Shown: positions 41,473-55,122, counted from the first letter of the stretch. The stretch: 64,000 bases of DNA from Rhodospirillales bacterium (GCA_009885795.1 VFKA01000010.1:4695-68694); one strand, 5' to 3'. Numbers and translations are program-made. Notes: generated from the sequence alone by a model not told the origin.

Positions 41473-42276
41473 CTACAAATCGTCGCGGCGCCGCAAGATA
41501 GCCTCGGCGAGGACCAGGTCCTCGGGCTTGTCCACGTCGATCGATGCCTCGGCGAACGGAAGCCGCACCGCGCGCACCGTGGCGCCGATGCGCCGCGACA
41601 CGACCTCCATCGCGCCGTCGAGCGTGAGGCGGCCGAGGAGGAATTGCACCAGCGGGGCAATCCCGATCGCCGCGATCAACCGCCAGGGCTGCTTGCGGAA
41701 CCGCTCGAGGTCGGTCCAGAACGCGGCGGCGCGCAAGGAAGCGGGCGTCGTCAACAAGAACAGGTTGCACCCGCTATAGCCTTCTCCCGCCAGACGGTAA
41801 AACGTGCGCGCGGCGTCGGGATAGGCCGCGCGAACGATCTCGGCCGTGGCCACCGCGACGGCCACGTCGGCGCCGCCGGCCAGGGCCTCCTTGTGGAAAT
41901 GCTCGATCATGGCCCGAGTGAGCAGCGGATGATCGCCGGTCGTCACCAGCATCGGCCATGGCGTCGAAGCCCCGGCGAGCGTTCGGCGCACGCTGTCGCT
42001 GGGCGACGTTCCCGCCGGGGCGAATTCAACCCGGCCGGCGCGGTGCAGCGCATCGAGCTCGGGCATGTCCTCCAACTCCGAGGCATCGGTCAGCGATAGA
42101 AGTATGCGCCCGATGGCCGGAGTCGCCAGCAGCGTTCGAACGACACGAACCAGCATCGGCACGCCGGCAATCGGCACCGCCACCTTGAAACGCTGGCCGA
42201 ACGCCGCCGCGACGGGGTCGCTCGCCGCGCGCTGCCCGGCCAGCACCAGGGCGGTCACTGTTCCATCGCCGGTCAT
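41473..42276 (-). CDS. nucleotidyltransferase family protein (MobA-like / NTP_transf_3 fold)
   Basis: 267 aa. N-terminal TALVLAGQRAASDP...AVPIAGVPML pattern. The ATG overlaps the stop of the upstream GNAT gene (ATGA). Confidence 0.55.
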   Translation of the reverse strand: MTGDGTVTALVLAGQRAASDPVAAAFGQRFKVAVPIAGVPMLVRVVRTLLATPAIGRILLSLTDASELEDMPELDALHRAGRVEFAPAGTSPSDSVRRTLAGASTPWPMLVTTGDHPLLTRAMIEHFHKEALAGGADVAVAVATAEIVRAAYPDAARTFYRLAGEGYSGCNLFLLTTPASLRAAAFWTDLERFRKQPWRLIAAIGIAPLVQFLLGRLTLDGAMEVVSRRIGATVRAVRLPFAEASIDVDKPEDLVLAEAILRRRDDL

Positions 42277-43436
42277 GCCAAGGCCTTTTCATAGATCCGG
42301 TAAGTCTTGTAGGCGCGCCCGCCGACGCCTTCGATGAGGCGCCTGGCCGCGACATTGTCGTCGAGGATCCAGGACAATTCGGCGCGGGCAAACCCGAGCC
42401 TGACCACGGTCCGGCGCAGATTTTCGAGAACGATGAGCCCAAGGGCGGCGCCTAGCGGCGTGCCGTGATAGCGCCGCCTTACGCCGAAAAGCGGCACGCG
42501 CGCCGTGCGCAAGCCCTTGATCTTCAGCCGCCACAGGAGCTTCACCCACCCCGTGGGCAGCAGCCGCCCGCCGAGATCGGCGATGGCTTCCGCCAGATTG
42601 GGAACCGCGACGATCATGCTGGCGGCCTCGCCATCCACTTCCGCGATCCAGACGAGATCGGGCAGCAGGACGGGCCGCAACCCTTGCGCCGCCTGGGTCA
42701 CTTCATCGGCGGTGAAGGGCACGAATCCCCAGTTTTCGGACCAGGCATCGTTGAAGATGTCGAGTATCATGGCGAGGTCGGCGTCGTAGCGCCGTTTGTC
42801 GAGGTTTCGCACGCGCACCCTGCGGCCATCGGCGGCCTTGGCGAGCCAGCGTTCGGCGAGGATCGGCTTTGCCGTCGCCATATCATAGTCGTAGGCGATG
42901 AGATCCTTGGCCTTGGCATAGCCCTGCTCGGCCAGGCGCCGGCCGGCATAAGGCGGCGCATAGGGCATCATCAACATCGGCGGCGCATCGAACCCTTCGG
43001 CCAGCAGTCCGGCTTCTTCATTGATCGAGGGATTGAACGGCCCGCGCACCCGGACCATGCCGCGCTCTTTCAACCACGTCTCGGCGGCGGCGGCGAGCGC
43101 CGCGAAAACGTCCCGATCGTCCACGGCATCGAGGAACCCGAAATATCCGATGGCGCCATGGCGCTCGAGCGACAGGCGATCGATCTGAGCGGAGATCCGG
43201 CCGACGGCCTGTCCGCCGCGCGATGCAATCCAGAACCTTGCCTCGGCATGCTGGAAATAGGCGCTGCGCGCCGGGTCGAGAAGCTTTCGCATTTCGCTCA
43301 AGAGCGGCGGCGCGTAGCCGCGGGCACCGGCGTAAAGCGTCATGGGCAAGGCAAGGAATTGCTCCAGTTGACGCGGAGAATCCACGGCCAGGATCGAGAG
43401 CGGCGCGGCCGTGGGCGCGATGCCGCCGCCGGTCAA
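42273..43436 (-). CDS. GNAT-fold N-acyltransferase, candidate bacterial ceramide synthase (bCerS-like)
   Basis: 387 aa with a C-terminal GNAT core (...ELSWILDDNVAARRLIEGVGGRAYKTYRIYEKAL). The TTG start overlaps the lptG stop (TTGA). The functional call rests on the sphingolipid gene neighbourhood. Confidence 0.5.
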   Translation of the reverse strand: MTGGGIAPTAAPLSILAVDSPRQLEQFLALPMTLYAGARGYAPPLLSEMRKLLDPARSAYFQHAEARFWIASRGGQAVGRISAQIDRLSLERHGAIGYFGFLDAVDDRDVFAALAAAAETWLKERGMVRVRGPFNPSINEEAGLLAEGFDAPPMLMMPYAPPYAGRRLAEQGYAKAKDLIAYDYDMATAKPILAERWLAKAADGRRVRVRNLDKRRYDADLAMILDIFNDAWSENWGFVPFTADEVTQAAQGLRPVLLPDLVWIAEVDGEAASMIVAVPNLAEAIADLGGRLLPTGWVKLLWRLKIKGLRTARVPLFGVRRRYHGTPLGAALGLIVLENLRRTVVRLGFARAELSWILDDNVAARRLIEGVGGRAYKTYRIYEKALA

Positions 43437-44515
43437 TAGCCCTCCATCCGCAGCAGCGCCGCGCCGCCGACACTGCCGAACAAGATCGCCGGGCTCCAGG
43501 CCGCGAGGACCGGTGGCAAGATACCGGCCTCGCCCAGCGCCAATGAAAAACCGTCGGTGACGAAAAAGAGGAATCCGAGGCCCAGGCCGATGGCGATCCC
43601 GGTGGCGAGGCCGCCTTGGCGGCGCATGGCCTGGGCGACGGGTGCCGCAAGCAGCAGCATCAGCAGGGCCGACGCCGGAATGGCCAAGCGCTTGTGGAAC
43701 GCCGTTTCATAGAAATAGGGCGCGAAAGCGCCCACGTCGGGGGTCGAGACGTACCGATAGAGCTCGGCCAGCGAGAGGCTGGCCGGCGTCGCCGCGCGCT
43801 CGGAAAAATGGCCGGGGGCAAGGTGGGTCTTCCATTCCTGCTGTGCCGTGCGCCGATACGTACCGCCCGATCCGGTCGATGGGATGAAGACCTCGACGCC
43901 CAGCAGGGTCCAGCTGCCTTCACGGTAGCGGGCGCCGTTGGCGGTGGTGCGGGCGGCCAGGCGCCCGGCCTCGTCGCGGGAGAAGATGGTGACACCGGAC
44001 AACTGGCGGCCATTGTCGAACACCCCGGCGACGCGGACCATGACCCGGCCGTCGTGAATCCAGATCGCCTGATCCACGTCGGGCGCGGCATAGCCCTGAT
44101 CCCCGATCCCCGAATCCCAGGCCATCAGGGCACGGACGGAAGCGGGCGCGACCTGGTCGCTGGCAAAGAGGTGCAGCAGCGATACGCCGAGGACGACCGG
44201 CAGGAAAGCCAGCAGCAGCCGGTAATAGGGCAGTCCCGCGGCCTTGAGGGCCAGCACTTCGTTATGGAGAGCAAGACGGCTGAGCGCGATCAGGCACGCC
44301 ATCAGCACCGAAAACGGCATCATGAGAATGACGACTTCGGGCAAACGCAGCACCGTGTACCGGGCAAGGGCGGTCACGGCATTGCCATGACGCGCCATGA
44401 TATCGGGCGCGTTGTTGAGCAGATCGAACAATTGCAGCAGCGATACGAAGCCGAGCAGCGAGAACACCAGCTGCACGAGAAACAAACGGGTCGCATAGCG
44501 AAAAAGGGTGGCCAT
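43433..44515 (-). CDS. lptG: LPS export ABC transporter permease LptG (YjgP/YjgQ family)
   Basis: Start MATLFRYATRLFLVQLVFSLLGF within ORF 43433..44674. The ATG overlaps the lptF stop (TGATG). Confidence 0.8.
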   Translation of the reverse strand: MATLFRYATRLFLVQLVFSLLGFVSLLQLFDLLNNAPDIMARHGNAVTALARYTVLRLPEVVILMMPFSVLMACLIALSRLALHNEVLALKAAGLPYYRLLLAFLPVVLGVSLLHLFASDQVAPASVRALMAWDSGIGDQGYAAPDVDQAIWIHDGRVMVRVAGVFDNGRQLSGVTIFSRDEAGRLAARTTANGARYREGSWTLLGVEVFIPSTGSGGTYRRTAQQEWKTHLAPGHFSERAATPASLSLAELYRYVSTPDVGAFAPYFYETAFHKRLAIPASALLMLLLAAPVAQAMRRQGGLATGIAIGLGLGFLFFVTDGFSLALGEAGILPPVLAAWSPAILFGSVGGAALLRMEGY

Positions 44516-45798
44516 CAAGCGCCCGTCAGGGATCGCGCGAGGCCGCGGCGGCCCCGTTCCACGGCATCGAGCGTCGATTCGATCGCGACCGTGAACACAT
44601 TGTATCCGGGCCGGCTGTTCGACGAATGGAAAGCCCAGACGCTGAACCACGAAAAGCAGAGGAACGGCACCCACATGGTCAGCCAGGGGCTGAGATTCGT
44701 TGCTTGGCCGAGGTTATTCCCAAGCTGCAGCACGTGGTGGTAGAGTACGATGATCACGATGGCGAGCCCGAAGGCGATGGTGCGGGATGCGCGCCGGGAC
44801 GCGGTCCCGAGCGGGATGGCCAAGCATGGCAAGAACAGCAGGGAAAGTATGCGCACCACGCGTTCGTGCAGCTCGCGCTTCAATCCGTCGGTGCTCAGGC
44901 CCGGCGGCGGGTCGCTCAGCGAATTCCAAAGCTCGACCAAGGTAAATTCGTTGTAGCCGCGGCCACGTTGGCGAAACGGCGTCGGGACCAACGAGAAATC
45001 GAGCGGCAGGTTGAGGTTGTCGAAGGTGACGACCGTCGAATTGCGGCTGGCGACGTCGTTTTCGATCCGCAACCCGGACTCCAGGCTCAAGATCAGCCGT
45101 TCATTGTCCGCCGAGCGGTACACGTTGCCCTTCCTCGCCGTGGTGGTGATCGAGCCGCCGTCCGGCTTTTGCTCGTGGATGAAGATTCCGGCAAGGCTGC
45201 GGCCGCCGTCGCCGATGTCGTCCACCATGATGGTCATGTTGCCGAAGCCGCTGAAGAAGGCGCCGCGCTCGAGCGCGATGTCCCAGGCGGTGTTGGTGAC
45301 GATGTGCACCAGCGCGCGGTAGGCGTATCGCGTCAAGGGTTGCATGAAGCCGACGATGACGGTGCTGCCGATCACCAGAAGCATCGCCACCACCATCAAC
45401 GGCATCAGAAGACGCCCGTAGCCGACGCCCACCGCGTGAATGGCGTCGAACTCGTTGTCGCTGCTGAGCCGCGCGGTCGCCAACAGGATGCCGATGAAAA
45501 AGGCGGCCGGCAGCGCCAGCCCCAGATATTGCGGAACAAGGTAGGCGAGCATGCGCAGCAGCAAGTAAAAAGGCCCGCCTTCGTTGACGACGATGTCGAG
45601 AAGACGAACGGTCCGTTCCAGCATCAACGCCAGCAGGGCCACGCCGAGCGAAGCGAAGAGCGGCCACAACGTCTTGCCGATGATGTACCGGTCCAGCAGC
45701 CGCATCGGAACATGCAGGGCGAGCCGGCCGAGGGCGAGGGACATCGGCCCGCTCGCGTGTTCTTCCGCGCGCCCCGGCGGTTTGCGTGGACCGGTCAT
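44515..45798 (-). CDS. lptF: LPS export ABC transporter permease LptF (YjgP/YjgQ family)
   Basis: Contains MRLLDRYIIGKTLWPLFASLGV. The ATG at 45798 overlaps the metallophosphoesterase stop as ATGA. Alternative starts are 45744 and 45705. Confidence 0.8.
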   Translation of the reverse strand: MTGPRKPPGRAEEHASGPMSLALGRLALHVPMRLLDRYIIGKTLWPLFASLGVALLALMLERTVRLLDIVVNEGGPFYLLLRMLAYLVPQYLGLALPAAFFIGILLATARLSSDNEFDAIHAVGVGYGRLLMPLMVVAMLLVIGSTVIVGFMQPLTRYAYRALVHIVTNTAWDIALERGAFFSGFGNMTIMVDDIGDGGRSLAGIFIHEQKPDGGSITTTARKGNVYRSADNERLILSLESGLRIENDVASRNSTVVTFDNLNLPLDFSLVPTPFRQRGRGYNEFTLVELWNSLSDPPPGLSTDGLKRELHERVVRILSLLFLPCLAIPLGTASRRASRTIAFGLAIVIIVLYHHVLQLGNNLGQATNLSPWLTMWVPFLCFSWFSVWAFHSSNSRPGYNVFTVAIESTLDAVERGRRGLARSLTGA

Positions 45799-46739
45799 GC
45801 GGCCAGGCGGCGGGCGCCGGGAACGGCGAGCTCGAATCCGCCTTCGCGTTCGAAACGGTCGAGCGACGGCGCCACGCCCCTGACCTCGACCGCGAGGCGC
45901 CAGCCATTGGGCTCGCGCGCGACCCGATAGAGATGGTAGCGGGCATGGTCCTTGCCGCGATGCGGCCGCGCCGAGGCGGACGGTACGCCAATCGCCGGCG
46001 CGGTGCCGAAGGGCGTGTCGAGCTTGCCTAGCACCGACAGGTGGGTATGCCCGAATATCACCAGTTCCGCCCCGGCCCGCGCCACGACCTGGCGGAACGC
46101 TTGCGAATCGAGAAGCCGCTTGCGCCGGCTCGCGGACCCCGCCAGGGGCGGATGATGAATGAGCACGACGCGAAAAAGGTCGCGGGTGCCCAGCCGGGCG
46201 AGAGTGTCCTCCAGCGCCTGCAACTGCGCCGGTCCGACGCGCCCGGCCGCCATGTGCAAGGGCATGGGCCGAGCCGTCGATACGCCGACGAGGGCAAGGG
46301 GACCTCGCAGCCGGACGAAGGGGAATCCCTCGGGGCCTGGGACCGGGCGCTCGGCGCCGTCGAGCGTGCTACCCAAGCCGGTCATGTTGCCGCTCCAAAG
46401 CCCGACGGACCGATCCCAGGCAACCGGAACGTAGGCATCGTGGTTGCCCGGAACGACCGTCACGGTCCCGGGCTCGCCCAGCGATGCCAGCCACCTTGCC
46501 GCACGCTCGAACTCCTCGGGCAGGGATATATTGGTAATGTCGCCGGTGATGGCGATGTGGTCCGGCCGCTGGCGTGCCAGATCCTCCACCAGTGCCGGCA
46601 GAACCGGGCCTTCATGCACCGGGCGTCGGCGGACCATCCAGGAGATCAGCCCGAGACAACGCTTGTTCAAGAGATCGCCGAGGGCCGGCCAGCCCATATC
46701 GCCGAGATGCGGGTCGGAAAGATGCGCGAGAGTGAACAT
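45795..46739 (-). CDS. metallophosphoesterase (calcineurin-like)
   Basis: 314 aa with motifs LSDPHLG, ITGDITN, VPGNHD, and GHTH in FGHTHLS. Confidence 0.8.
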   Translation of the reverse strand: MFTLAHLSDPHLGDMGWPALGDLLNKRCLGLISWMVRRRPVHEGPVLPALVEDLARQRPDHIAITGDITNISLPEEFERAARWLASLGEPGTVTVVPGNHDAYVPVAWDRSVGLWSGNMTGLGSTLDGAERPVPGPEGFPFVRLRGPLALVGVSTARPMPLHMAAGRVGPAQLQALEDTLARLGTRDLFRVVLIHHPPLAGSASRRKRLLDSQAFRQVVARAGAELVIFGHTHLSVLGKLDTPFGTAPAIGVPSASARPHRGKDHARYHLYRVAREPNGWRLAVEVRGVAPSLDRFEREGGFELAVPGARRLAA

Positions 46740-46784: not shown

Positions 46785-46855
46785 CTTGGACATGGCCGAA
46801 GGTCAAGGTTTCTTTGATTCTACCGGCTTCTAGAGGGTTACTTGGACATGGCCGA
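46785..46855 (+). promoter_or_regulatory. perfect 15-bp direct repeat duplicating the start-codon context; the upstream copy opens a 13-codon uORF
   Basis: cttggacATGgccga at 46785..46799 and 46841..46855. The first ATG (46792) gives MAEGQGFFDSTGF-TAG (46792..46833). The second ATG (46848) starts the CDP-alcohol transferase gene. Confidence 0.6.
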
Positions 46856-48026
46856 CGCACGCGACAAGGACGGCGGGCCAAGCGCCTGGATCGTGGGAAA
46901 GTGCGACGTCGCCCTTTGGGGACTGGACGCAACCTTACGCTGGCGGCGCTGTCTTGGCCGCGCGGGTGTCACTGCCTGCCAAGTGGAACCGGCGCCGATC
47001 GAGGCCGCCGGTCGGGTTCTGCTCGTGCGCGCCGATGCCGTGGCGCAAGAGAGCCTGGTCCAGGCCCTGGTCGCGTCCCCCGATACCGTCCTCGCGCTTT
47101 CCGGGGCAGCGGATTCAAGCTGCGTGCCGCTGGCGGCTCATGTGCCGGCCGATCTCGCGGGCTTCGTCGCCGGCGCGATGCGGCGCGGTCGGTGCGAGAC
47201 CGCCGAACTCGCCGGGCGCGGCCTCGCGGTAAAAGATCCCGATGAGCTCGGATCGTCCTATCACCATGCGCTGCGAAAGCGCGCCGCGCCGTTCGCGATG
47301 CTGGTGACGGCGGCTTCGGCGCCGGACATCGAACGGCGCATGTTCGCCGCCTCGTATAAGGGTGTCACCGATCTGGTCACGAAATGGCTGTGGCCGGTTC
47401 CGGCGCGCTGGGTGACGGGTTGGGCGGCGCGGCGCGGCATTTCCGCCAACGCGGTCACCTGGCTGAGCCTCGTCTTCGTCGTCTTGGCCTGGTGGTTGTT
47501 CGCCGCCGGCGAATTCGTTCTCGGCCTCGCCGCGGCTTGGGCGATGACGTTTCTCGACACCGTCGACGGCAAGCTGGCGCGCGTCACCCTGACTTCCAGC
47601 AAGTTCGGCGACGTCTTCGACCATGGCATCGATCTGTTGCATCCGCCGTTCTGGTACGTGGCCTGGTGGCAGGGGCTTGCCGACGGAAGCCCGGCGCTGG
47701 CGGCGGCGATGTGGATTGTCGTTGCCGGCTACATCCTCGGCCGGGTCATCGAAGGTTGGTTCATCTGGCGGTTCAAGTTCGAGAGTCACGCCTGGCGGCC
47801 GATCGATTCGCGATTCAGGCTGATCACGGCGCGGCGCAACCCGAACCTGATCCTGTTGACGGTCGCCGCGATCCTCGGCCAACCGGCATTCGGCTTGGTC
47901 GCGGTTGCGGTGTGGACGGTTCTGTCGCTGATATTTCACCTCGTCCGGTCGGGGCAGGCCGAGGCGGCGAACCGGCGCGGCTCGCCGCCGCGTTCGTGGC
48001 TTACGGAAGCAGCGCCGCCGGCATGA
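46848..48026 (+). CDS. CDP-alcohol phosphatidyltransferase family protein with soluble N-terminal domain of about 170 aa
   Basis: Family motif DTVDGKLARVTLTSSKFGDVFDHGID, i.e. D-x2-DG-x2-AR-x8-G-x3-D-x3-D, in a polytopic C-terminal half. No family recognised for the N-terminal domain. Confidence 0.8.
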   Translation: MADARDKDGGPSAWIVGKCDVALWGLDATLRWRRCLGRAGVTACQVEPAPIEAAGRVLLVRADAVAQESLVQALVASPDTVLALSGAADSSCVPLAAHVPADLAGFVAGAMRRGRCETAELAGRGLAVKDPDELGSSYHHALRKRAAPFAMLVTAASAPDIERRMFAASYKGVTDLVTKWLWPVPARWVTGWAARRGISANAVTWLSLVFVVLAWWLFAAGEFVLGLAAAWAMTFLDTVDGKLARVTLTSSKFGDVFDHGIDLLHPPFWYVAWWQGLADGSPALAAAMWIVVAGYILGRVIEGWFIWRFKFESHAWRPIDSRFRLITARRNPNLILLTVAAILGQPAFGLVAVAVWTVLSLIFHLVRSGQAEAANRRGSPPRSWLTEAAPPA

Positions 48027-48988
48027 TGCGCGTCGGTGTCATCTCGAATCCGCGCAGCCGGCGCAACCGCGATGGCATGGACAAGATCCGCGCCGTGCTT
48101 GCCCGCCATGGCGACATCGCGCATGCGGAATTGAGCCGCATGGCCGAGTTGCCGGCGGCGGTTCGCCGGTTCGCCGATTCGGGCGTGTCGCTGGTGGTCG
48201 TGAACGGCGGCGATGGAACCGTGCATGCCGTCCTCAGCGAAATCTTGAACGGCGTGCTTCTCGCCGATCCGCCCCGGCTCGCGGCCTTGCCATCGGGCAT
48301 GACCAATCTGATCGCCGTCGATGTCGGCCTCGCCGGGCGGCCGGACCTGTCGCTTGCGAACCTTTTGTCGCGGGTCCGCGACGGCGGCGAACTGACGGTC
48401 CGGCGCCGGCCGGTCTTGTCGTTGACGCCGGCGCCGGGCGCGCGGGCCAGTCATGGCATGTTCTTCGGCACCGGCGCCTTCTATCGCGCCGTCATGGCCA
48501 GCCGCCGGCGCATCCATCCGACCGGTGTCCGGCACGATCTCGCCACCGCCCTCTCCGTCGGATTGTTCATCGCCGGAATGTTGCTGCGTCGTTCGTCGCC
48601 CGGTTCGCCTTATCGCGGCGACGGCATGACGATCCGCCGGGATGGTGGGGTCGCCCGAACCGGCACTCATCTCGGAATGGTCGCGACGACCTTGGAGCGG
48701 CTTTCCATGGGCCTCGACCCGTTCTGGGACGGGACCGAGGGCCCGATGCGCTACACCCTGCTGCCGTTTCCGCCCCATCGCTTCGGCTCGGCCATGGTGC
48801 CGATTCTTCTCGGGCGGCCGCTCCCGTGGATGGCGGGGAAGGGCTATGAGAGCGGGCGGGCGGCCGAGCTCGCCTTTACGATCGACTGCCCGCTGGTGCT
48901 GGATGGCGAGGTGTACGCGGCGCCGACGGGCGCGCCGGCGGTGCTTCGCGCCGACCGCGAGGTCGAGTTCGTGACCATTGATGGATGA
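48023..48988 (+). CDS. lipid kinase, DAGK-catalytic/LCB5 family (candidate ceramide kinase)
   Basis: Start MMRVGVISNPRSRRN (ATGA overlap with the upstream stop). Has the VVVNGGDGTVHAV motif. Confidence 0.7.
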   Translation: MMRVGVISNPRSRRNRDGMDKIRAVLARHGDIAHAELSRMAELPAAVRRFADSGVSLVVVNGGDGTVHAVLSEILNGVLLADPPRLAALPSGMTNLIAVDVGLAGRPDLSLANLLSRVRDGGELTVRRRPVLSLTPAPGARASHGMFFGTGAFYRAVMASRRRIHPTGVRHDLATALSVGLFIAGMLLRRSSPGSPYRGDGMTIRRDGGVARTGTHLGMVATTLERLSMGLDPFWDGTEGPMRYTLLPFPPHRFGSAMVPILLGRPLPWMAGKGYESGRAAELAFTIDCPLVLDGEVYAAPTGAPAVLRADREVEFVTIDG

Positions 48989-49907
48989 GATATCGGTGAC
49001 CGACGCCCGGCAAGACATAGACCGCCTGATCGCCGCGGAGATCGGCTTGTCCGTCGCGGCATCGGTGCGCGCGGCGGCCGACGACATTCGCGCCCGGTTG
49101 GGCGGACACGCGCGAGCGATCCTTTTTTATGGATCGTGCTTGCGCCGGGGCGGCGATCCGGCGGAGGACGATGATTCGGTTCTCGATTTCTATGTGCTGG
49201 TCGAGGGCTATGCCGACCTCTATGACAACCGCCTCCTGGCGCTCGCCAACCTGCTCCTGCCGCCCAACGTCTTCTACGCGGAGGTGCCATGGCAGGGGCG
49301 GAGCCTGCGCGTCAAATACGCCATCGTTTCCGAAGCCTCGTTCCGGCGCGGCTGCACGAGCCGTAGCTTGCATTCGTTGCTGTGGGGCAGGTTCGCGCAA
49401 CCCGTGCGCCTGGTGTACGCGCAAGACGAGCCGGCGCGGCGCAATGTCACCGATGCGCTCGGCGACGCGGTCGTGACGCTTCTAGCGGCCGCGCTGCCTC
49501 TGGTGCCGGCGGATGGTTCGGCCTTGGAACCATGGACTCGCGCGCTCGAGGAAAGTTATCGCACGGAGTTGCGGACGGAACGCGCCGGCCGGGCCGGGGA
49601 CATCGTCGCCGCGGATGGCGCGCGCTACGCGGCCTTGACGCCGCTGGCGATGACGCTCGCGCGTCCCGTGTCGCCGGCGCGCGCCCGCGCGCTCTGGGCC
49701 TTGCGGCGCGCGATCGGCAAGCCGATGAGCGTGGCGCGGCTGGCGAAGGGCGTCTTCACCTTCACCGGGGGCCAGAGCTACATTCTGTGGAAGCTTCATC
49801 GCCATTCGGGCGTGACGCTGGCGCCCACACCCTGGCAGCAGCGCCACCCGCTGCTGTCGGCGCCGGTCTTGGCCTGGCGCCTCTATCGCCGCGGCGCCTT
49901 TCGCTGA
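48981..49907 (+). CDS. Tam41/Mmp37-like nucleotidyltransferase (mitochondrial-type phosphatidate cytidylyltransferase family)
   Basis: About 308 aa. ILFYGSCLRRG...LDFYVLVEGY, NVFYAEVPWQGRSLRVKYAIVSEASF, LLWGRFAQPV and ESYRTELR align block by block with yeast Tam41 as I recall it (FGYGSGVF, GVYFNPF..VKYGVVS, YLAGRLQKPV, LSYAGDIR). Overlaps the kinase stop by 8 nt. Confidence 0.6.
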   Translation: MDEISVTDARQDIDRLIAAEIGLSVAASVRAAADDIRARLGGHARAILFYGSCLRRGGDPAEDDDSVLDFYVLVEGYADLYDNRLLALANLLLPPNVFYAEVPWQGRSLRVKYAIVSEASFRRGCTSRSLHSLLWGRFAQPVRLVYAQDEPARRNVTDALGDAVVTLLAAALPLVPADGSALEPWTRALEESYRTELRTERAGRAGDIVAADGARYAALTPLAMTLARPVSPARARALWALRRAIGKPMSVARLAKGVFTFTGGQSYILWKLHRHSGVTLAPTPWQQRHPLLSAPVLAWRLYRRGAFR

Positions 49908-49979
49908 CCCTTCTCCAGATCCGTGGCGGTCATTCTAGGTGTCATTGACACATATGCCGTTGACGCATATATTGCGGCC

Positions 49980-50318
49980 ATGTCGATCGTGACCGTTGTC
50001 GAAACGCTGGAATTTCAGCGCCGGGCCGACGAACTCATGAGCGATGAAGAACGCCAGGAAATCATCGACTTCATCGCCCGCAACCCTGGTGCCGGCGTTT
50101 CCATCGAAAGCGGCGTGCGCAAGGTGCGTTTTGCCCGGAAAGGCGGCGGAAAGAGTGGCGGCTACCGGGTCGTCCATTTCCATGGCGACGACGCGAGGCC
50201 AATCTTCCTGCTGACGGTGTTCGCGAAGAACGATAAATCGGCCCTGACCCGATCGGAGACGGACGCGATCAGAAAGCTAGGCAAGGTGCTGTCGGATACC
50301 TACGGGAGACCAAGATGA
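49980..50318 (+). CDS. RelE/ParE-superfamily toxin (Gp49/HigB-like)
   Basis: Start MSIVTVVETLEF within ORF 49923..50318. Contains ...GGYRVVHFHGDDARPIFLLTVFAKNDKSALT. ATGA overlap with the antitoxin. Confidence 0.75.
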   Translation: MSIVTVVETLEFQRRADELMSDEERQEIIDFIARNPGAGVSIESGVRKVRFARKGGGKSGGYRVVHFHGDDARPIFLLTVFAKNDKSALTRSETDAIRKLGKVLSDTYGRPR

Positions 50319-50608
50319 GCAAGGCATTCAAGAGCATCGAGAGAGGCCTCAAGGAGGCCATCGCCCATGCCAAGGGCACGCGGCTCGGCATCATCCACGA
50401 GATCGATGTACCCAAGCCGGACGTGTCGGCGATCCGGGCGAAGACCGGATTATCGCAGGCGGTCTTTGCCAAGAGCATCGGCGTCAAGAAGGGCACGGTC
50501 TTGAACTGGGAGCATCGGCGCCGATCCCCGGACGGCCCGGCCCGCGTCCTGCTCGCCCTGATCGACAAGGATCCGAGCATCGTCCAGCGCACCCTCGCCC
50601 GGCGCTAA
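50315..50608 (+). CDS. XRE-HTH antitoxin (HigA/NadS-like)
   Basis: 97 aa with GLSQAVFAKSIGVKKGTVLNWEHRRRSPDGPARVLLALI. Confidence 0.75.
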   Translation: MSKAFKSIERGLKEAIAHAKGTRLGIIHEIDVPKPDVSAIRAKTGLSQAVFAKSIGVKKGTVLNWEHRRRSPDGPARVLLALIDKDPSIVQRTLARR

Positions 50609-50638: not shown

Positions 50639-51856
50639 TCAGGCGACCGCAGCTTCGGAGGGCGCTTCGAGCAGGCCGGTCGCATAAGCGACGCCGGTGA
50701 GCGCCCGGATGATGGTCTCCAGTTGTTCGCGGTCATGCGCGGCGCAGACGCTGCAACGCAGCAGCGCCGTGCCACTGGGTGTCGCGGGCGGCAGCGCCAG
50801 GTTCATGTAGACGCCGGCATCGAGCAGCGCCTTCCACACCGCCACCCCCATCTCGGCGCTCGGCAGATGCACGGCGACGACCGGGCCCTTCCGCGGTCCG
50901 AGATCGAAGCCTTGCCGCTGCAACCCGTCATAGAGAATGCCGACGTTCGACCACAGCCGCGCGCGCAACTCCGGGTGCGCGACCATGACCTTAAGCGCGG
51001 CCCGAACCGAGGCGACGATGGAAGGCGGCAGCGATGCCGTGAACATGTAAGGGCGGCTCACAACTCGCATGATGTCGAAGTCGGGATGATCGGACACGCA
51101 ATAGCCGCCGATGGCCCCAAGGCTCTTGCTGAAGGTACCGGTGATAAAATCGACGTCGGCTTCGAGGCCCTCGGCCTCCGCGAGGCCGCGCCCGGTGCGC
51201 CCGAGCACGCCCATCGAATGCGCTTCGTCGACCAGGAGATAGGCGCCGTGACGGCGTTTCACCTCGACGAATTCGGCCAGCGGCGCCTGATCGCCCAGCA
51301 TGCTGTAGATGCCTTCGGTGACGATGATCTTGTTGCCGGGCTTGCCGGCCAGCCGCGCCAGGCGCTTGTCGAGATCGGCGGCGTCGTTGTGCCGGAAACG
51401 AATCACGGTGGCCTGCCCCAGGCGCGACGCGTCGTAGATGCTGGCGTGGCAATCCGCGTCCAGCATCAGAAAATCGTCCGGTCCGGCGATCGCCGATATG
51501 ACGCCTAGATTGGCCTGATAGCCGGTCGTGAACACCATGCAGTGCTTGCGGCCGTAAAACGCCGCCAGTTCGTCTTCGAGCAATTGGTGCCCGTCGTAAC
51601 TGCCGTTGGCGATGCGCGAGCCGGTGGTCCCGGTGCCGAACGATTCCGCCGCTTCCGCGGCCGCGTCCACGCAGGCGGCGTCGAAGGTCAGGCCGAGATA
51701 GTTGTTGGTGCCGGCGAGGATGGTGTAGCAGCCATTGACGATGGCCTCGGTCGGCGACAGCACCTGATCCATCTTGACCGCGAATGGCTCGGCGCCGCTC
51801 GCGCGAAACCGCGCGCAGACATCCTTCTGTACCTCGTAGCGATCGAACAGGCCCAT
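50639..51856 (-). CDS. spt: serine palmitoyltransferase (alpha-oxoamine synthase family)
   Basis: Start MGLFDRYEV (or GTG at 51865) within ORF 50639..52171. PLP-lysine motif GTFSKSLGAIGG, plus LGTNNYLGL-type, DEAHSMG and PPATP...LLRCS motifs. It resembles Sphingomonas SPT end to end from memory and has a dedicated ACP immediately upstream. Confidence 0.8.
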   Translation of the reverse strand: MGLFDRYEVQKDVCARFRASGAEPFAVKMDQVLSPTEAIVNGCYTILAGTNNYLGLTFDAACVDAAAEAAESFGTGTTGSRIANGSYDGHQLLEDELAAFYGRKHCMVFTTGYQANLGVISAIAGPDDFLMLDADCHASIYDASRLGQATVIRFRHNDAADLDKRLARLAGKPGNKIIVTEGIYSMLGDQAPLAEFVEVKRRHGAYLLVDEAHSMGVLGRTGRGLAEAEGLEADVDFITGTFSKSLGAIGGYCVSDHPDFDIMRVVSRPYMFTASLPPSIVASVRAALKVMVAHPELRARLWSNVGILYDGLQRQGFDLGPRKGPVVAVHLPSAEMGVAVWKALLDAGVYMNLALPPATPSGTALLRCSVCAAHDREQLETIIRALTGVAYATGLLEAPSEAAVA

Positions 51857-51861
51857 ATGCG

Positions 51862-52122
51862 TCACGCCCCCCCTTTGATCCGCGCCACCGTGGCCGCCAA
51901 ATCGGCAACCGAGTGGATCTCCGGCACCAGATTGAGCGGGATCGAAATATCGAACCGCTCCTCCAGCTTCATCATCAAATCCATCACCGCCAGGGAATCC
52001 AGATTGAGATCCCTGGCGATATCCGTCTCTCCGGTAATGGATCCGCCCGCCTGGCGGAACGGCTCGAGAAGTTCGATGACTTGGCCGATAAGCGCTTGTG
52101 CTTCTTCCCGCTGGCCACTCAT
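51862..52122 (-). CDS. acyl carrier protein (sphingolipid-dedicated type)
   Basis: Start MSGQREEAQ within ORF 51862..52212. Phosphopantetheine site DLNLDSLAVMDL. Confidence 0.8.
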   Translation of the reverse strand: MSGQREEAQALIGQVIELLEPFRQAGGSITGETDIARDLNLDSLAVMDLMMKLEERFDISIPLNLVPEIHSVADLAATVARIKGGA

Positions 52123-52241
52123 CCCCATCTCCGCCGCAACGCCACCACGCGGCTGAACCCGCGTTTCCCACCGAATCATAGCCCGGCGCCCGGCCCCCAC
52201 TACCAAGCGCACTTATCCGGAATCGCAGGGCAAAGCTGAAA

Positions 52242-52266
52242 TAACAAATTGTTACAGATTGTTACA
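52242..52266 (-). promoter_or_regulatory. AT-rich palindrome/tandem repeat between cerR-like gene and acp
   Basis: TAACAA-A-TTGTTA perfect palindrome (52242..52254) overlapping tandem ATTGTTACA x2 (52248..52256, 52258..52266). It is a local AT island in a GC-rich genome. Confidence 0.4.
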
Positions 52267-52304
52267 AATAGGTTCTAACCCAGCCGGCCGGCGCCTTCCC
52301 GGCC

Positions 52305-53252
52305 TCAAAGCCATCCGGCGGCGCGATACCAGGCGACGGTCTCGCGGAATCCCTCGGCGACCCCGATTCGCGCCCACCAGCCCAGCTCCGCCAGCAACCG
52401 GTCCTCGCGGCAAACCCAATCCGGGTGGCGGACTTCCCTCAGCTTGCCCGGCGTCAGGGTCGGCGTCCGGCCCGCCAGCCGCGCCAGCGCCACCGCCAGC
52501 CCGGAGGCCAGAACCTGGACCGGCATTGCCACCGGCACGGAAATCGGACTCCTACCGACGGACTGGGCGCCGAGCGCCACCAGTTCGGACCAGCCATATC
52601 CGCCACGCCGCCCATCGTCGATCTCGATGATGGCGCCGCCGGGGTTGAGCCGTTCGAGGACGGTCACCACGGCCGCCGCCAGATCGGCCACATGAAGGAA
52701 CGACAGCCGGGCGCGCTTTGGCGCCGGCAACAAGACCCAGCCATTCCCGATGCAGCGAAAGAACAGCAGCGTCTCGCGGTCGCCGGGGCCGTAAACCACC
52801 GGTGGCCGCAGCGCGGTCCAGCGCAACCGCCCGCCCTGTGCCGTCAAGGCCTCCTCCGCCGCGCTCTTGCTTGCGGCGTAGGGGGAAATCCCGGGCTCGC
52901 GCGCGGCCAGCGAGGACATGTGGAGAAAGTGAGCCGACGGCGCTTGGCGAACCGTCGCGGCGGCAAGGGCGGCCGTTCCTTCGGCATTGACCCGGCGGAA
53001 GTCGGCGCGCCGCCGGGCCTTGACCAGGCCGGCGCAATGCACGACGGCGTCGGCGCCGATCACGAGTTCTTCCAGGCTGGCGGGATCGCCGAGGTCGCCG
53101 ATCGCCACGTCAAGCGTGAGCCCGGCAAAAAGCGGTCCGGCCGGGATGCGCCGGCTAAGGATGCGAACCCGCCACCCCGCCGCCGCCAGGGCCGCGACCA
53201 CGTGACCGCCGATGAAACCGGTGCCGCCGGTGACGGCGACGAGGCGCGGCAT
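52305..53252 (-). CDS. NAD(P)-dependent epimerase/dehydratase-family reductase (CerR-like candidate)
   Basis: 315 aa with VTGGTGFIGGHV Rossmann motif. Starts 3 nt after the stop of the upstream ligase. The functional call rests on synteny with spt/acp. Confidence 0.65.
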   Translation of the reverse strand: MPRLVAVTGGTGFIGGHVVAALAAAGWRVRILSRRIPAGPLFAGLTLDVAIGDLGDPASLEELVIGADAVVHCAGLVKARRRADFRRVNAEGTAALAAATVRQAPSAHFLHMSSLAAREPGISPYAASKSAAEEALTAQGGRLRWTALRPPVVYGPGDRETLLFFRCIGNGWVLLPAPKRARLSFLHVADLAAAVVTVLERLNPGGAIIEIDDGRRGGYGWSELVALGAQSVGRSPISVPVAMPVQVLASGLAVALARLAGRTPTLTPGKLREVRHPDWVCREDRLLAELGWWARIGVAEGFRETVAWYRAAGWL

Positions 53253-53255
53253 GGA

Positions 53256-55025
53256 TTAGCGCCCGGCGGGGGCCGAAACGGCCAGCTTCCGGTCGTCGCC
53301 GCCAGGCGGAGAGCCATGGAGGCCGGCGAGGAAGTCGGTCTTGGCCTTGCCGCGGCTGAGCTTGCCCGACGAGGTTTGGGGCAGGGCATGGGGCGCCACC
53401 AGAACGACCTCCGTTTCAACCGCGAAAGACCGGCGCAAGGTCGCCGACACTTCGGCGGCCAGCGCCTGTCGGGCCGAGGGCTCGATCAGGCGGCATTGCA
53501 CGAGAACGACGACATGCTCGCCGGCATCGTCATCCTCGACCGAAAATGCCGCGGCATCGCCGCGACGCAAAGCCGGTATTTCCTCGACCGTCCACTCCAG
53601 GTCTTGCGGCCAGATGTTGCGGCCGTTGACGATGATGAGGTCCTTGGCACGGCCGGTGATGACGATCTGGCCATCGACGAGGTAGCCGAGGTCGCCGGTA
53701 TCGAGCCAGCCCCGATCGTCGAACACTTGGCGCGTTGCTTCCGGCTCGTTGAAGTAACCGGCGGTGATGCTCGGGCCCTTGGCGAAAATCCGCCCTAGCC
53801 TGCGCTCCGGCAGACTCTGCCCGTCGGCCCCACGGACCTCGATATGATGGCCGCCGAGCGGGCGCCCGCACAGAACGAACTCGCGCGAGCGTGTGCCATC
53901 GCCGTCGCCCGCGGGCTCGGCGATCTTGTCCTCGGCCAGCCGGCGGCGGTCGACGCGGTCGAGCAGGACGCCGCGGTCGAGGGCCGAGAAGCTGAGCGCC
54001 AGCGTCGCCTCGGCCATGCCGTAACTGGGCACGAAGGCCTCGGCGCGAAAGCCGTAGGGGCCAAAGGCCTCGGCGAACCGCGCCAGGATACTCGGGCGTA
54101 TCATGTCGCCGCCGATGCCGGCGACGCGCCAGCGGCGAAGGTCGAGTCCCATTGCCGATGCATCGGCAGCGCGGCGCGCGCAGAGCTCGTAGCCGAAGGA
54201 CGGGCTGAAGGCCAAGGTGCCGCCATGGCGCGAAAGAAGTTGCAGCCATGTCAGCGGCCGGCGCGCGAAATCCCGCGTGGTCATGGTGTCGACCGACATC
54301 TGCGCGAAGAGCGGCGTCAGCAGGAACCCGACCAGCCCCATGTCGTGATAGAGCGGCAGCCACGACGCGCACCGGTCGCCGGGAACCATCCTAAGACCAT
54401 CGACGACGATGGCGCGGCAATTCGCCGCCAGCGCGCGCTGGCGGATATCGACCCCGAGCGGGAACCGCGTGCTGCCGGAGGAGTATTGCAAGTAACTCGA
54501 CTCGTCGGGCCCGAATGGCCGCGGATCGACGCCGCCTTCGGGCAAGGCCTCGAAATCGGCGGGCGATCCGACCAGCGCCAGTCCCAGCCCCGCGCCGGCC
54601 TCGCGCAAATAGTCCATGAGTTCCGGCGGCGCCATGGCGGCGCTTGCGCCCGAACCTTCGATCTGCCGGCGCAACGCGCCGATATAGGCATCCTTGCCGC
54701 CAAGCCCGATCGGCAGCGCGACCGGGACCGGCAGAATGCCGGCGTACTGACAGGCCATGAACATGATGACGAAGGACGGGTCGGTATCGGCCAGCATCAG
54801 GAACCGCGCGCCCTTGGCTAGGCCGGCCCGGATCAAGCGGCGCGCTTGCGCCACCGCCAATTCGCGCAGCTCCGCATAGCCGAGTGCCCGCGCCAGTTCC
54901 CCGCGCACGGAGAAGAAGTTAAGCCCGGTTCGTCCGCGCGCGGCGTAATCCAACGCTTCCGCCAGCGTATCGAACGCGGCGGGGCGAAGGGGCAGGGTGT
55001 CGTTGGTTGATGGTGTCGGGTCCAT
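53256..55025 (-). CDS. fatty-acyl-AMP ligase / acyl-ACP synthetase-like (AMP-binding family)
   Basis: ORF 53256..55091 (start 55091 or MDPTPSTNDT at 55025). AMP-binding motif LQYSSGSTRFP and C-terminal ...TSSGKLSR. Confidence 0.75.
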   Translation of the reverse strand: MDPTPSTNDTLPLRPAAFDTLAEALDYAARGRTGLNFFSVRGELARALGYAELRELAVAQARRLIRAGLAKGARFLMLADTDPSFVIMFMACQYAGILPVPVALPIGLGGKDAYIGALRRQIEGSGASAAMAPPELMDYLREAGAGLGLALVGSPADFEALPEGGVDPRPFGPDESSYLQYSSGSTRFPLGVDIRQRALAANCRAIVVDGLRMVPGDRCASWLPLYHDMGLVGFLLTPLFAQMSVDTMTTRDFARRPLTWLQLLSRHGGTLAFSPSFGYELCARRAADASAMGLDLRRWRVAGIGGDMIRPSILARFAEAFGPYGFRAEAFVPSYGMAEATLALSFSALDRGVLLDRVDRRRLAEDKIAEPAGDGDGTRSREFVLCGRPLGGHHIEVRGADGQSLPERRLGRIFAKGPSITAGYFNEPEATRQVFDDRGWLDTGDLGYLVDGQIVITGRAKDLIIVNGRNIWPQDLEWTVEEIPALRRGDAAAFSVEDDDAGEHVVVLVQCRLIEPSARQALAAEVSATLRRSFAVETEVVLVAPHALPQTSSGKLSRGKAKTDFLAGLHGSPPGGDDRKLAVSAPAGR

Positions 55026-55122
55026 GATCGGCGATGCGGAAAGACGGGGGCTCGGATCGGCCGGCGCCGGTGCCCTCTTAGCAAATTCCATTGCCGCGCC
55101 ACAAGCGGATTGGCCGATTGAA

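Follow-up and report, generated by a model that had tools for sequence, protein, structure and literature searches.

Three adjacent genes in the window (the whole stretch of 64,000 nucleotides analysed here) very probably form a cpgABC operon within a complete cluster for sphingolipid synthesis and export, whose product would be an anionic lipid of the ceramide phosphoglycerate type. They represent a further copy of the known cpgABC system, in this case from an uncultured alphaproteobacterium related most closely, among named groups, to Dongiaceae. In Caulobacter crescentus, cpgABC (CCNA_01217-01219, or CC_1159-CC_1161) lies inside the CC_1152-CC_1168 sphingolipid cluster and adds an acidic phosphoglycerate head group to bacterial ceramide.

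Gene order of the sphingolipid cluster

The three genes are co-oriented and translationally coupled, and they encode a CDP-alcohol phosphotransferase, a lipid kinase with DAGK_cat domain and GGDGT motif, and a protein without a Pfam match of its own. Both overlaps described in the original prediction are found in the sequence: the ATGA at 48023-48026 combines the ATG of cpgB with the TGA of cpgA, and the 8-nt ATGGATGA at 48981-48988 holds the cpgC ATG and the cpgB TGA. The features of the cluster are the following:

40459..41202, + strand: cpgD-like (CC_1152-like) cytidylyltransferase, presumed CDP-glycerate synthase for CpgA (Pfam, PDB)
41473..42276, - strand: CC_1153-like MobA/CofC-like nucleotidyltransferase (Pfam NTP_transf_3, IspD)
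42273..43436, - strand: bCerS-like ceramide synthase, GNAT (Pfam Acetyltransf_1; position and synteny of CC_1154)
43433..45798, - strand: two LptF/LptG paralogues (43433-44674 and 44515-45798), presumed sphingolipid export permeases (Pfam LptF_LptG, 6e-71 and 2e-63)
45795..46739, - strand: CC_1158-like calcineurin-type metallophosphoesterase, divergent from cpgA (Pfam Metallophos, 1.6e-13)
46848..48026, + strand: cpgA-like, AF2299-type CDP-alcohol phosphotransferase, 392 aa (Pfam, signature, AF2 model, Foldseek)
48023..48988, + strand: cpgB-like lipid (ceramide) kinase, 321 aa (Pfam DAGK_cat, synteny)
48981..49907, + strand: cpgC-like, Tam41-like nucleotidyltransferase-fold protein, 308 aa (AF2, Foldseek, profile)
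49980-50318, + strand: RelE-family toxin (Pfam RelE, 3e-10)
50315-50608, + strand: HTH antitoxin (Pfam HTH_3, 2e-5)
50639-51856, - strand: spt (Pfam Aminotran_1_2)
51862-52122, - strand: acpR-like ACP (Pfam PP-binding)
52305-53252, - strand: cerR (Pfam Epimerase)
53256-55091, - strand: aasR-like acyl-ACP synthetase (Pfam AMP-binding)
55207-56973: MsbA-like ABC transporter, after aasR

The resulting order (cpgD-like, CC_1153-like, bcerS, lptG2/F2, CC_1158-like, cpgABC, spt, acp, cerR, aasR) agrees with that of CC_1152-CC_1165 in C. crescentus, as given by the published map and domain descriptions (PMC11324152, PMC9393093), and the same arrangement was assembled independently in two metagenome runs. 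Because of this shared order, and with three domain types in the same succession, the triad would be the counterpart of Caulobacter cpgA-cpgB-cpgC on synteny and domain content, which bears out the resemblance to the cpgABC-spt region pointed out in the original prediction. The expected Caulobacter neighbours are present (spt, acpR, cerR, aasR, bcerS, lptF2/G2, the CC_1158 phosphoesterase, CC_1153 and cpgD), the sole missing member being the HIT (CC_1157-like) gene between the phosphoesterase and lptF2. Contrary to C. crescentus, the window has an MsbA-like ABC transporter after aasR in place of a Wzx-like flippase, its host belongs to another order (Dongiaceae-like), and a RelE/HTH toxin-antitoxin pair (49980..50608) is inserted between cpgC and spt. 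This last pair had been correctly placed between the triad and the ceramide core genes, which together span 50639..55091 on the - strand; in many relatives spt starts about 0.9-1.0 kb past the cpgC start, so that both genes are directly adjacent there. A promoter-like site is located at 49945-49973, between cpgC and the toxin-antitoxin pair.

The cpgD-like protein matches the same three Pfam families reported for CC_1152 (NTP_transf_3, NTP_transferase and IspD; PMC11324152), and its PDB matches include the CTP:phosphocholine cytidylyltransferase 1jyk. The CC_1153-like protein, whose closest PDB match is 2dpw, is unrelated to it when both are compared in sequence, and its gene adjoins bcerS, as in C. 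crescentus (PMC11324152). The LptF/LptG paralogues of C. crescentus are the subject of a 2026 preprint, and CC_1158 contributes to CPG2 formation in that organism (PMC11324152).

The three proteins of the operon

The kinase assignment of the original prediction (DAGK-catalytic/LCB5-type) is confirmed by the Pfam DAGK_cat match of the CpgB-like protein (51.4 bits against a cut-off of 23.6, E 1e-13) and by the GGDGT motif at residues 62-66 (nt 48206-48220). C. crescentus CpgB has been shown biochemically to be a ceramide kinase, which in vitro phosphorylates DAG as well as ceramide (PMC10331486). Against the NCBIfam lipid-kinase equivalogs (YegS, DgkB-type, MamU), the CpgB-like protein reaches at best 31 bits for a cut-off of 274; against those of phospholipid synthases (PIPS, PgsA/PssA), the CpgA-like protein reaches at best 41 bits for a cut-off of 180. 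By sequence, both would be relatives, rather than members, of these named equivalogs, even though CpgA homologues are often automatically annotated as phosphatidylglycerophosphate synthase.

The CpgA-like protein carries the full motif attributed to it, D237-x2-D240-G241-x2-A244-R245-x8-G254-x3-D258-x3-D262 (nt 47556-47633), with a match to Pfam CDP-OH_P_transf (PF01066) of 33.6 bits for a cut-off of 22, and this catalytic signature is invariant in 35 homologues (alignment A3). A cytosolic cytidylyltransferase-like domain occupies residues 1 to about 185; it has no Pfam match and had been left unassigned. About six transmembrane (TM) helices come after it. In the AF2 model (pLDDT 89.7), this N-terminal domain is packed on the six-TM core, as in enzymes of the AF2299/DIPPS type. 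The best Foldseek matches are AF2299 (4o6m/4o6n/4q7c; E about 5e-11, TM-score 0.63-0.77) and the IPCT-DIPPS 4mnd, both spanning the two domains. The N-terminal domain alone gives weak matches to the stand-alone IPCT 2xme/2xmh, and its motif LWGL..ER.RR..RAG aligns with the N-domain of AF2299. It can be assigned as the cytidylyltransferase-like cytosolic domain of AF2299/IPCT-DIPPS; it has no G-x-G-x-R nucleotide loop and is probably inactive.

These Archaeoglobus fulgidus enzymes share with CpgA the two-domain architecture at full length, the intact signature on a six-TM core, and a partner cytidylyltransferase, separate or fused, making a small soluble CDP-alcohol, which is CDP-glycerol or CDP-inositol in A. 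fulgidus and would be CDP-glycerate for CpgA. They differ in that CpgA lacks the nucleotide loop, is bacterial, has only 12-14% identity to them and presumably uses a membrane lipid (CPG) as acceptor. AF2299/IPCT-DIPPS enzymes take soluble CDP-alcohol donors. Irrespective of the donor, soluble acceptors have been associated with the six-TM architecture (PMC4634129), an association that is hard to square with CPG as acceptor and counts against the route favoured here.

The CpgC-like protein matches nothing on its own in Pfam (E<=1) or NCBIfam, Tam41_Mmp37 (PF09139) included. The original prediction had named the lack of a significant Mmp37/Tam41 match as grounds for its own refutation; even though this match is literally absent, the resemblance is real at the level of profile and fold, where CpgC is a remote Tam41 homologue. 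The AF2 model (pLDDT 92.5) has Tam41 structures (6ig2, 6ig4, 7ecd) as its first four Foldseek matches (E 2.5e-7 to 3e-6), with TM-scores of only 0.47-0.58. The CpgC family profile A2 matches 6ig2 with E=7.9e-5, the family member P0172 does so by phmmer (E=3.7e-6), and hhalign against Tam41 gives E=3e-5 with a probability of 73%. Tam41_Mmp37 is itself matched by 12 of the 112 CpgC relatives at E<=0.01 (best 34.3 bits, cut-off 24).

Among 112 diverse representatives, Y50, G51, D69, K112, R137, Q140, E196, R198, E200, Y267 and K271 are invariant. In the A2-6ig2 alignment, YGS, D69, K112, R137..QP and Y193..E196-x-R198-x-E200 of CpgC stand opposite YGSGV, MIDFIF, KYGV, GRFQKPV and LSYLGDIR..AEN of Tam41, and the aligned residues G51, S52, D69, K112, R137, P141, Y193, E196 and R198 show no variation, or hardly any, across the representatives, which argues for a retained active site in CpgC. 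Of the acidic residues in the classical nucleotidyltransferase (NTase) triad, CpgC has a single one, as has been reported for Tam41 (PMC11646218). The C-terminal module (residues 263-308, 46 aa) is basic, with nine K/R and no D/E. No other part of the protein is as conserved, Y267 and K271 in this module being invariant and R274, H275 and G277 nearly so; it fits a role in membrane or lipid-phosphate binding, by analogy with the C-terminal amphipathic helix of Tam41.

Compared with the Tam41/Mmp37 CDP-diacylglycerol synthases (Schizosaccharomyces pombe 6IG2/6IG4; Firmicutes 7ECD), CpgC has the NTase-fold core, the helical domain and the basic C-terminal region, as well as YGS, the single Asp, KYG/KYA, GRxQKP/ARFAQP and SYxGDxR/TYxxELR. 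An anionic lipid phosphate at the membrane surface is the substrate of Tam41 and the predicted one of CpgC. However, identity is only 13-16%, the Pfam model does not recognise the protein of the window, conservation of the C-terminal module goes far beyond that of a simple anchor, and the substrate indicated by genetics is ceramide-1-phosphate (C1P), not phosphatidate (PA). C. crescentus CpgC is likewise domain-less by ordinary search yet has Tam41 affinity. CpgA, CpgB and CpgC are of the CDP-alcohol phosphotransferase, LCB5/DAGK and Tam41-like type, respectively, which the original prediction could not confirm for CpgA and CpgC.

Two probable modules and a proposed route to the lipid

The conservation of the genes was surveyed in the best 80 of 583 loci from a genome scan, with neighbourhoods of +-10 kb. 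In this set, which spans Alpha- and Gammaproteobacteria, Desulfobacterota, Nitrospirota and Calditrichota, 76-77 of the 80 loci have cpgB as the gene just before cpgC, and across phyla the two genes, or all three, sit within spt/bcerS/cerR clusters. One representative is a fusion of the kinase with CpgC. Only 40 of the 80 have cpgA near cpgBC, and the three genes are contiguous in 40. Setting loci with cpgA against those without it, and with phylogenetic relatedness ignored, cpgD is found within +-10 kb in 16/31 against 0/21, the metallophosphoesterase in 29/31 against 8/21, and HIT in 18/31 against 0/21. We infer that cpgB-cpgC is a conserved core module and cpgA a second, optional one, together with cpgD, the metallophosphoesterase and the HIT protein.

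This division agrees with the genetics of C. crescentus. ΔcpgB lacks C1P, ΔcpgC keeps C1P and lacks CPG (PMC9393093), and in ΔcpgA CPG is still present while CPG2 alone is lost (PMC9393093, PMC11324152), so what CpgC makes can be consumed in the absence of CpgA. A 2025 study showed that CpgD (CCNA_01210) makes CDP-glycerate (PMC12275187). Biochemical characterisation is therefore not confined to the kinase step, as had been believed, and ΔcpgD has the phenotype of ΔcpgA (PMC12275187, PMC11324152).

In the favoured route, CpgB would use ATP to convert ceramide into C1P, as shown for the Caulobacter enzyme. CpgC would then act as a peripheral-membrane Tam41-like nucleotidyltransferase, and most likely the phosphate of C1P attacks the alpha-phosphate of CTP to give CDP-ceramide and pyrophosphate; given the likeness to Tam41, nucleotide activation of C1P appears the most natural chemistry. 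Glycerate or phosphoglycerate would next be joined to give CPG, which a housekeeping transferase or CpgC itself could do. Finally, the cpgD-like cytidylyltransferase (40459-41202) would make CDP-glycerate, from which CpgA would transfer phosphoglycerate to convert CPG into CPG2, a step suggested by Caulobacter genetics; fold, gene neighbours and the CpgD result all point to CDP-glycerate as the donor. The idea of CDP-ceramide is reasonable and finds support in the modelled structure, but it is not the new biochemistry it was taken for, since Olea-Ozuna et al. in 2024 had noted the Tam41 InterPro domain in CC_1161 and proposed an NDP-activated ceramide (PMC11324152, Conclusions, S1 Text). In the 2026 literature, CpgC still acts by an 'unidentified mechanism'.

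Alternative readings of the triad

A smaller but appreciable chance is left to CpgC releasing no liponucleotide, either joining glycerate directly to C1P, as originally proposed by Zik et al., or passing through a tightly bound activated intermediate, with the basic C-terminal module as part of a second half-site. The genetics show only a need for CpgC between C1P and CPG (PMC9393093), no dedicated transferase for CDP-ceramide and glycerate is conserved beside cpgBC in the best 80 of 583 loci, and the conservation of the 46 C-terminal residues exceeds what a membrane anchor needs. However, the direct condensation of C1P and glycerate is energetically unfavourable, as noted by the authors (PMC11324152), the residues conserved family-wide appear to be those common to the nucleotide site of Tam41, and a second catalytic site has no structural precedent in the Foldseek matches.

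The linear order of the original prediction, in which CpgA moves ceramide-phosphate from the CDP-ceramide made by CpgB and CpgC to a soluble alcohol, in parallel to PA to CDP-DAG to PG/PI, is unlikely. It would account for the coupling and contiguity of the triad, the intact signature of CpgA, an architecture said to take soluble acceptors and the lack of another transferase conserved beside cpgBC in the 80 loci; its last step is nevertheless poorly supported, because ΔcpgA still makes CPG, the ΔCC_1159/1160 mutant regains CPG with the kinase alone (PMC11324152, PMC9393093), half of the 80 loci have cpgBC without cpgA within +-10 kb, cpgA co-occurs with cpgD, and the closest structural relatives of CpgA take soluble CDP-alcohol donors. 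Less probable still is that the genes serve as a second, back-up route to glycerophospholipids (DAG to PA to CDP-DAG to a PG-like lipid) and merely happen to lie beside sphingolipid genes. The activity of CpgB on DAG, the CDP-DAG made by Tam41 enzymes and the automatic annotation of CpgA homologues would speak for it, whereas the embedding in sphingolipid clusters across phyla and the scores far below the PgsA, PIPS and lipid-kinase cut-offs speak against it, as does the finding that ΔcpgB leaves PA levels unchanged (PMC10331486) and cpg mutants lose specifically C1P, CPG or CPG2 (PMC9393093, PMC10331486). Taken as a whole, the original prediction is partly supported.

The cpgABC-like triad within a sphingolipid cluster

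A full bacterial sphingolipid gene cluster surrounds the triad; its features are as follows.

Features of the cluster in the window (coordinates, strand, description)
40459-41202, plus strand: NTP_transferase/IspD-type cytidylyltransferase, cpgD-like, opposite strand to the CC_1153-like gene
41473-42276, minus strand: MobA/CofC-like nucleotidyltransferase, CC_1153-like, upstream of the triad
42273-43436, minus strand: GNAT-type ceramide synthase, upstream of the triad, divergent
43433-45798, minus strand: two LptF/LptG paralogues, upstream of the triad, divergent
45795-46739, minus strand: calcineurin-type phosphoesterase, upstream of cpgA, divergent
46848-48026, plus strand: cpgA-like gene, 392 aa, Pfam CDP-OH_P_transf match above cut-off
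48023-48988, plus strand: cpgB-like gene, 321 aa, Pfam DAGK_cat match, GGDGT
48981-49907, plus strand: cpgC-like gene, 308 aa, product alone without a match in the Pfam or NCBIfam scan
within 49945-50608, plus strand: RelE-family toxin and HTH antitoxin, between cpgC and spt
55207-56973, minus strand: MsbA-like ABC transporter (ABC_membrane and ABC_tran), beyond the acyl-ACP synthetase gene

The ORF overlaps and the Pfam matches bear out the original prediction of three co-oriented, overlapping genes that include a CDP-alcohol transferase and a GGDGT kinase. The cpgB ATG (48023) sits on the cpgA TGA in an ATGA overlap, and the cpgC ATG (48981) stands 8 nt ahead of the cpgB TGA, where the overlap reads ATGGATGA. 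Residues 237-262 of the cpgA product carry the full D-x2-DG-x2-AR-x8-G-x3-D-x3-D signature, which is invariant in 35 homologues and is the sole such motif within the 64-kb window. At 46848-47123, the public assembly starts cpgA inside the gene and calls it as 300 aa (556-1458 of L082, a locus holding the window's own sequence); since the 35 homologues conserve the N-terminal domain, the longer form of 392 aa, which starts at 46848, is the more probable.

Three differences aside, the gene order is identical, gene for gene, to that of Caulobacter crescentus CC_1152 to CC_1165 (PMC11324152). The C. crescentus cluster lacks the toxin-antitoxin insertion carried here between cpgC and spt, its HIT gene CC_1157 has no counterpart in the window (at 45795-45798), and its flippase is the Wzx-like CC_1166, whereas the window has the MsbA-like transporter at that place. 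This transporter, whose homologues are found nearby in 14 of the best 80 of 583 related loci, is a possible alternative sphingolipid flippase. The toxin-antitoxin pair has its own strong promoter-like site, TTGACA-17-TATATT (49945-49973), and intervenes in the window between two genes that are directly adjacent in many relatives. Downstream of it, and convergent to the triad, lie the genes for serine palmitoyltransferase, acyl carrier protein, ceramide reductase and acyl-ACP synthetase. The gene at 41473-42276 was also considered as cpgD, which a PDB search and tblastn ruled out in favor of 40459-41202. Two metagenome runs gave this arrangement in independent assemblies, and the closest named relatives of the cluster proteins, among the matches listed, are Dongiaceae. 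The identity of the triad and its overall role as cpgABC carry high confidence; the locus represents another case of a genetically characterised system, and its most interesting hypothesis has already been published.

Family assignment of CpgC and CpgA

The predicted structure of CpgC (AlphaFold model built on 32 homologues, pLDDT 92.5) was compared with the PDB, and Tam41 structures from S. pombe and Firmicutes, the family named in the original prediction, were its four best matches (E 2.5e-7 to 3e-6, TM 0.47-0.58), with aminoglycoside nucleotidyltransferases ranking next at much lower TM-scores. No structure of a Cpg protein was found among the PDB entries searched. At the sequence level, a narrow profile of 32 sequences gave no Tam41 match against the PDB sequences; a broader one (112 representatives, 50% identity) reached Tam41 at E=7.9e-5, and one family member (P0172) matched it alone (E=3.7e-6). 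Pfam Tam41_Mmp37 was matched by 12 of the 112 family members, the best of them above the curated cut-off. Aligned by hhalign with a Tam41 fragment, the CpgC family gave E=3e-5, in a test that used a single Tam41 template and in which the S. pombe fragment search for the family alignment gave three hits. CpgC is therefore a Tam41-like protein, a remote homologue whose kinship stands by profile and fold and escapes the ordinary Pfam/NCBIfam domain search.

Nine residues (Y50, G51, D69, K112, R137, Q140, E196, R198 and E200) are invariant among the 112 representatives and align with the Tam41 blocks YGSGV, MIDFIF, KYGV, GRFQKPV and LSYLGDIR..AEN; judged from these alignments, CpgC retains a Tam41-type nucleotide site. 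Of the three acidic residues that make up the classical nucleotidyltransferase triad, the family, like Tam41 (PMC11646218), has only one. The last 46 residues of CpgC are its most conserved part and are strongly basic (9 K/R, no D/E), which would be compatible with membrane or lipid-phosphate binding similar to that of the C-terminal amphipathic helix of Tam41; such strong conservation suggests that they do more than anchor the protein.

Both domains of the CpgA model (pLDDT 89.7) match AF2299 and the bifunctional Archaeoglobus IPCT-DIPPS, CDP-alcohol phosphotransferases with an N-terminal cytidylyltransferase-like domain (E about 1e-10, TM at most 0.77). Its N-domain alone weakly matches the stand-alone CTP:inositol-1-phosphate cytidylyltransferase, and its N-terminal motif LWGL..ER.RR..RAG aligns with the N-domain of AF2299. 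On these fold and motif matches, the N-domain, previously left unassigned, is the cytidylyltransferase-like cytosolic domain of the AF2299/DIPPS subtype; it lacks the G-x-G-x-R loop and is probably not catalytic. Small soluble CDP-alcohols are the donors of AF2299 and DIPPS, and the six-TM core has been linked to soluble acceptors, a loose end for the lipid acceptor of CpgA (PMC4634129). By analogy, CDP-glycerate would fit as the CpgA donor.

Two modules across related loci

The CpgC family comprises about 1,600 representative clusters and, among the best 80 of 583 loci, occurs in Alpha- and Gammaproteobacteria, Desulfobacterota, Nitrospirota and Calditrichota. In 76-77 of these 80, cpgB lies immediately 5' of cpgC, the exceptions being mostly cut contigs. 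One representative-library protein (P0261, 662 aa) joins a cpgB-type kinase and a cpgC-type protein in one ORF; an internal Met stands at the junction, so overlapping genes may have been read through in sequencing or gene calling and the fusion may not be real, and little weight is therefore placed on it. By comparison, cpgA is adjacent to cpgBC in only 40 of the 80 loci, and the CDP-alcohol phosphotransferase motif is missing within ±10 kb in 39 of them.

Co-occurrence was counted in the 52 of these best 80 loci that extend 9 kb or more upstream (31 with cpgA, 21 without); phylogenetic relatedness among the loci makes the counts only nominal. The cpgD-like gene is found in 16/31 loci with cpgA and 0/21 without, the phosphoesterase in 29/31 and 8/21, and the HIT gene in 18/31 and 0/21, in agreement with earlier reports of a split arrangement in Sphingomonas wittichii and Hyphomonas neptunium. 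The picture is one of an almost inseparable cpgB-cpgC pair across phyla, for the first head group, and of a second module of cpgA, cpgD, phosphoesterase and HIT, for the second phosphoglycerate, cpgA going with cpgD and not with cpgC. The CC_1153-like gene tracks bcerS rather than cpgA in the 52 loci (together 29, CC_1153 alone 2, bcerS alone 9) and is also present in 9 loci without cpgA.

The HIT gene, which is small and CC_1157-like, occurs at L010:6051-6506 (-) and in 20 other loci among the best 80. HIT enzymes act on nucleotide alpha-phosphates; given this chemistry and the restriction to cpgA-bearing loci, the gene may be part of the CDP-glycerate/CPG2 module, CPG2 being ceramide phosphoglycerate (CPG) with the second phosphoglycerate. 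The Caulobacter paper considers CC_1157 'probably unrelated'.

Clustering of all ORFs in the 80 loci gave no extra conserved transferase beside cpgBC among those recurrent unlabelled families which, on scanning, matched Pfam: HIT, cpgD-like, fatty-acid hydroxylase, ACP and DUF2141. A fatty-acid hydroxylase gene lies near cpgBC in 25 of the loci (L010:1545-2324 (-) and 24 others) and a DUF2141 gene in 13 (L058:8196-8798 (+) and 12 others); by tblastn, representatives of neither had a match in the window.

Proposed head-group pathway and competing readings

Thanks to its anionic ceramide phosphoglycerates, Caulobacter can live without lipid A, and in this bacterium polymyxin/colistin targets these lipids. 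Among the reactions of the pathway, the main one still to be solved is the step that turns ceramide-1-phosphate (C1P) into the first phosphoglycerate, and the comparative and structural evidence narrows what to examine in it. In C. crescentus, whose cpgA, cpgB and cpgC are CCNA_01217-01219, ΔcpgB lacks C1P, CPG and CPG2, ΔcpgC keeps C1P and loses CPG, and ΔcpgA keeps CPG and loses CPG2 (PMC9393093; TLC confirmation PMC11324152). Biochemical work has shown CpgB to be a ceramide kinase, and in vitro it accepts DAG too (PMC10331486). We consider it very improbable that the triad serves as a back-up route for glycerolipids. CpgD (CCNA_01210 = CC_1152) converts CTP and phosphoglycerate into CDP-glycerate and is the proposed supplier of CpgA (PMC12275187).

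In the proposed mechanism, CpgB would phosphorylate ceramide to C1P, as shown for the Caulobacter enzyme, and CpgC would activate C1P with a nucleotide, which homology and energetics suggest to be most likely CTP, yielding CDP-ceramide. Glycerate or a phosphoglycerate would then displace CMP to give CPG, and CpgA, as the genetics suggest, would use the CDP-glycerate that CpgD has been shown to make to form CPG2. We regard formation of an NDP-ceramide by CpgC as somewhat favored. The original prediction instead had CpgA consume CDP-ceramide by transferring ceramide-phosphate to an alcohol. The phenotype of ΔcpgA, the way cpgA is distributed among the loci and the kinship of CpgA with AF2299 speak against this step, which is for these reasons considered improbable.

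A more tentative reading, which we would not expect to hold, takes cpgB-cpgC as a self-contained CDP-ceramide module spanning at least five phyla, which would supply a branch-point donor without a dedicated partner, CpgA/CpgD being a separate, DIPPS-like phosphoglycerate adder. CDP-ceramide would then be the sphingolipid counterpart of CDP-diacylglycerol, and housekeeping CDP-alcohol phosphatidyltransferases or the basic C-terminal module of CpgC could complete the head group. If true, this would represent the first nucleotide-activated sphingolipid intermediate. More generally, CDP-ceramide, if confirmed, would bring something new to lipid biochemistry, namely a sphingolipid-series liponucleotide, and would tie the synthesis of head groups on bacterial sphingolipids to the Tam41 family of mitochondria.

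The idea itself is not new. Olea-Ozuna et al. in 2024 noted an InterPro Tam41/Mmp37 domain in CC_1161 homologues and printed the hypothesis as 'NDP-activated ceramide' (PMC11324152), so that the central idea of the original prediction was already published; the literal term 'CDP-ceramide' did not occur in the literature searched, and in a preprint of May 2026 the mechanism of CpgC is still described as 'unidentified'. Four things are added here: the Tam41 link gains support from structure and profile, the nucleotide-site residues prove invariant in different phyla, cpgB and cpgC are seen to pair almost without exception, and the N-domain of CpgA is assigned and cpgA itself placed in the cpgD module.

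Some relatives carry a second cpgA-type gene, absent from the window, whose product of about 400 aa has an N-terminal cytidylyltransferase-like domain, carries the motif DSVDGKLARLTF... and shares 37-41% identity with CpgA. In the lineages concerned, this gene could supply the transferase for the first head-group step, or its product could add further phosphoglycerates. Among the best 80 of 583 loci, it is found in 12, mostly of Dongia/Dongiaceae, on the minus strand about 6.5-7 kb upstream of cpgC (L005, L006, L008, L010, L014, L017, L020, L022, L023, L032, L034 and L064), and in two Nitrospirales loci (L018 and L019) at 11.2-12.4 kb, directly 3' of cpgC.
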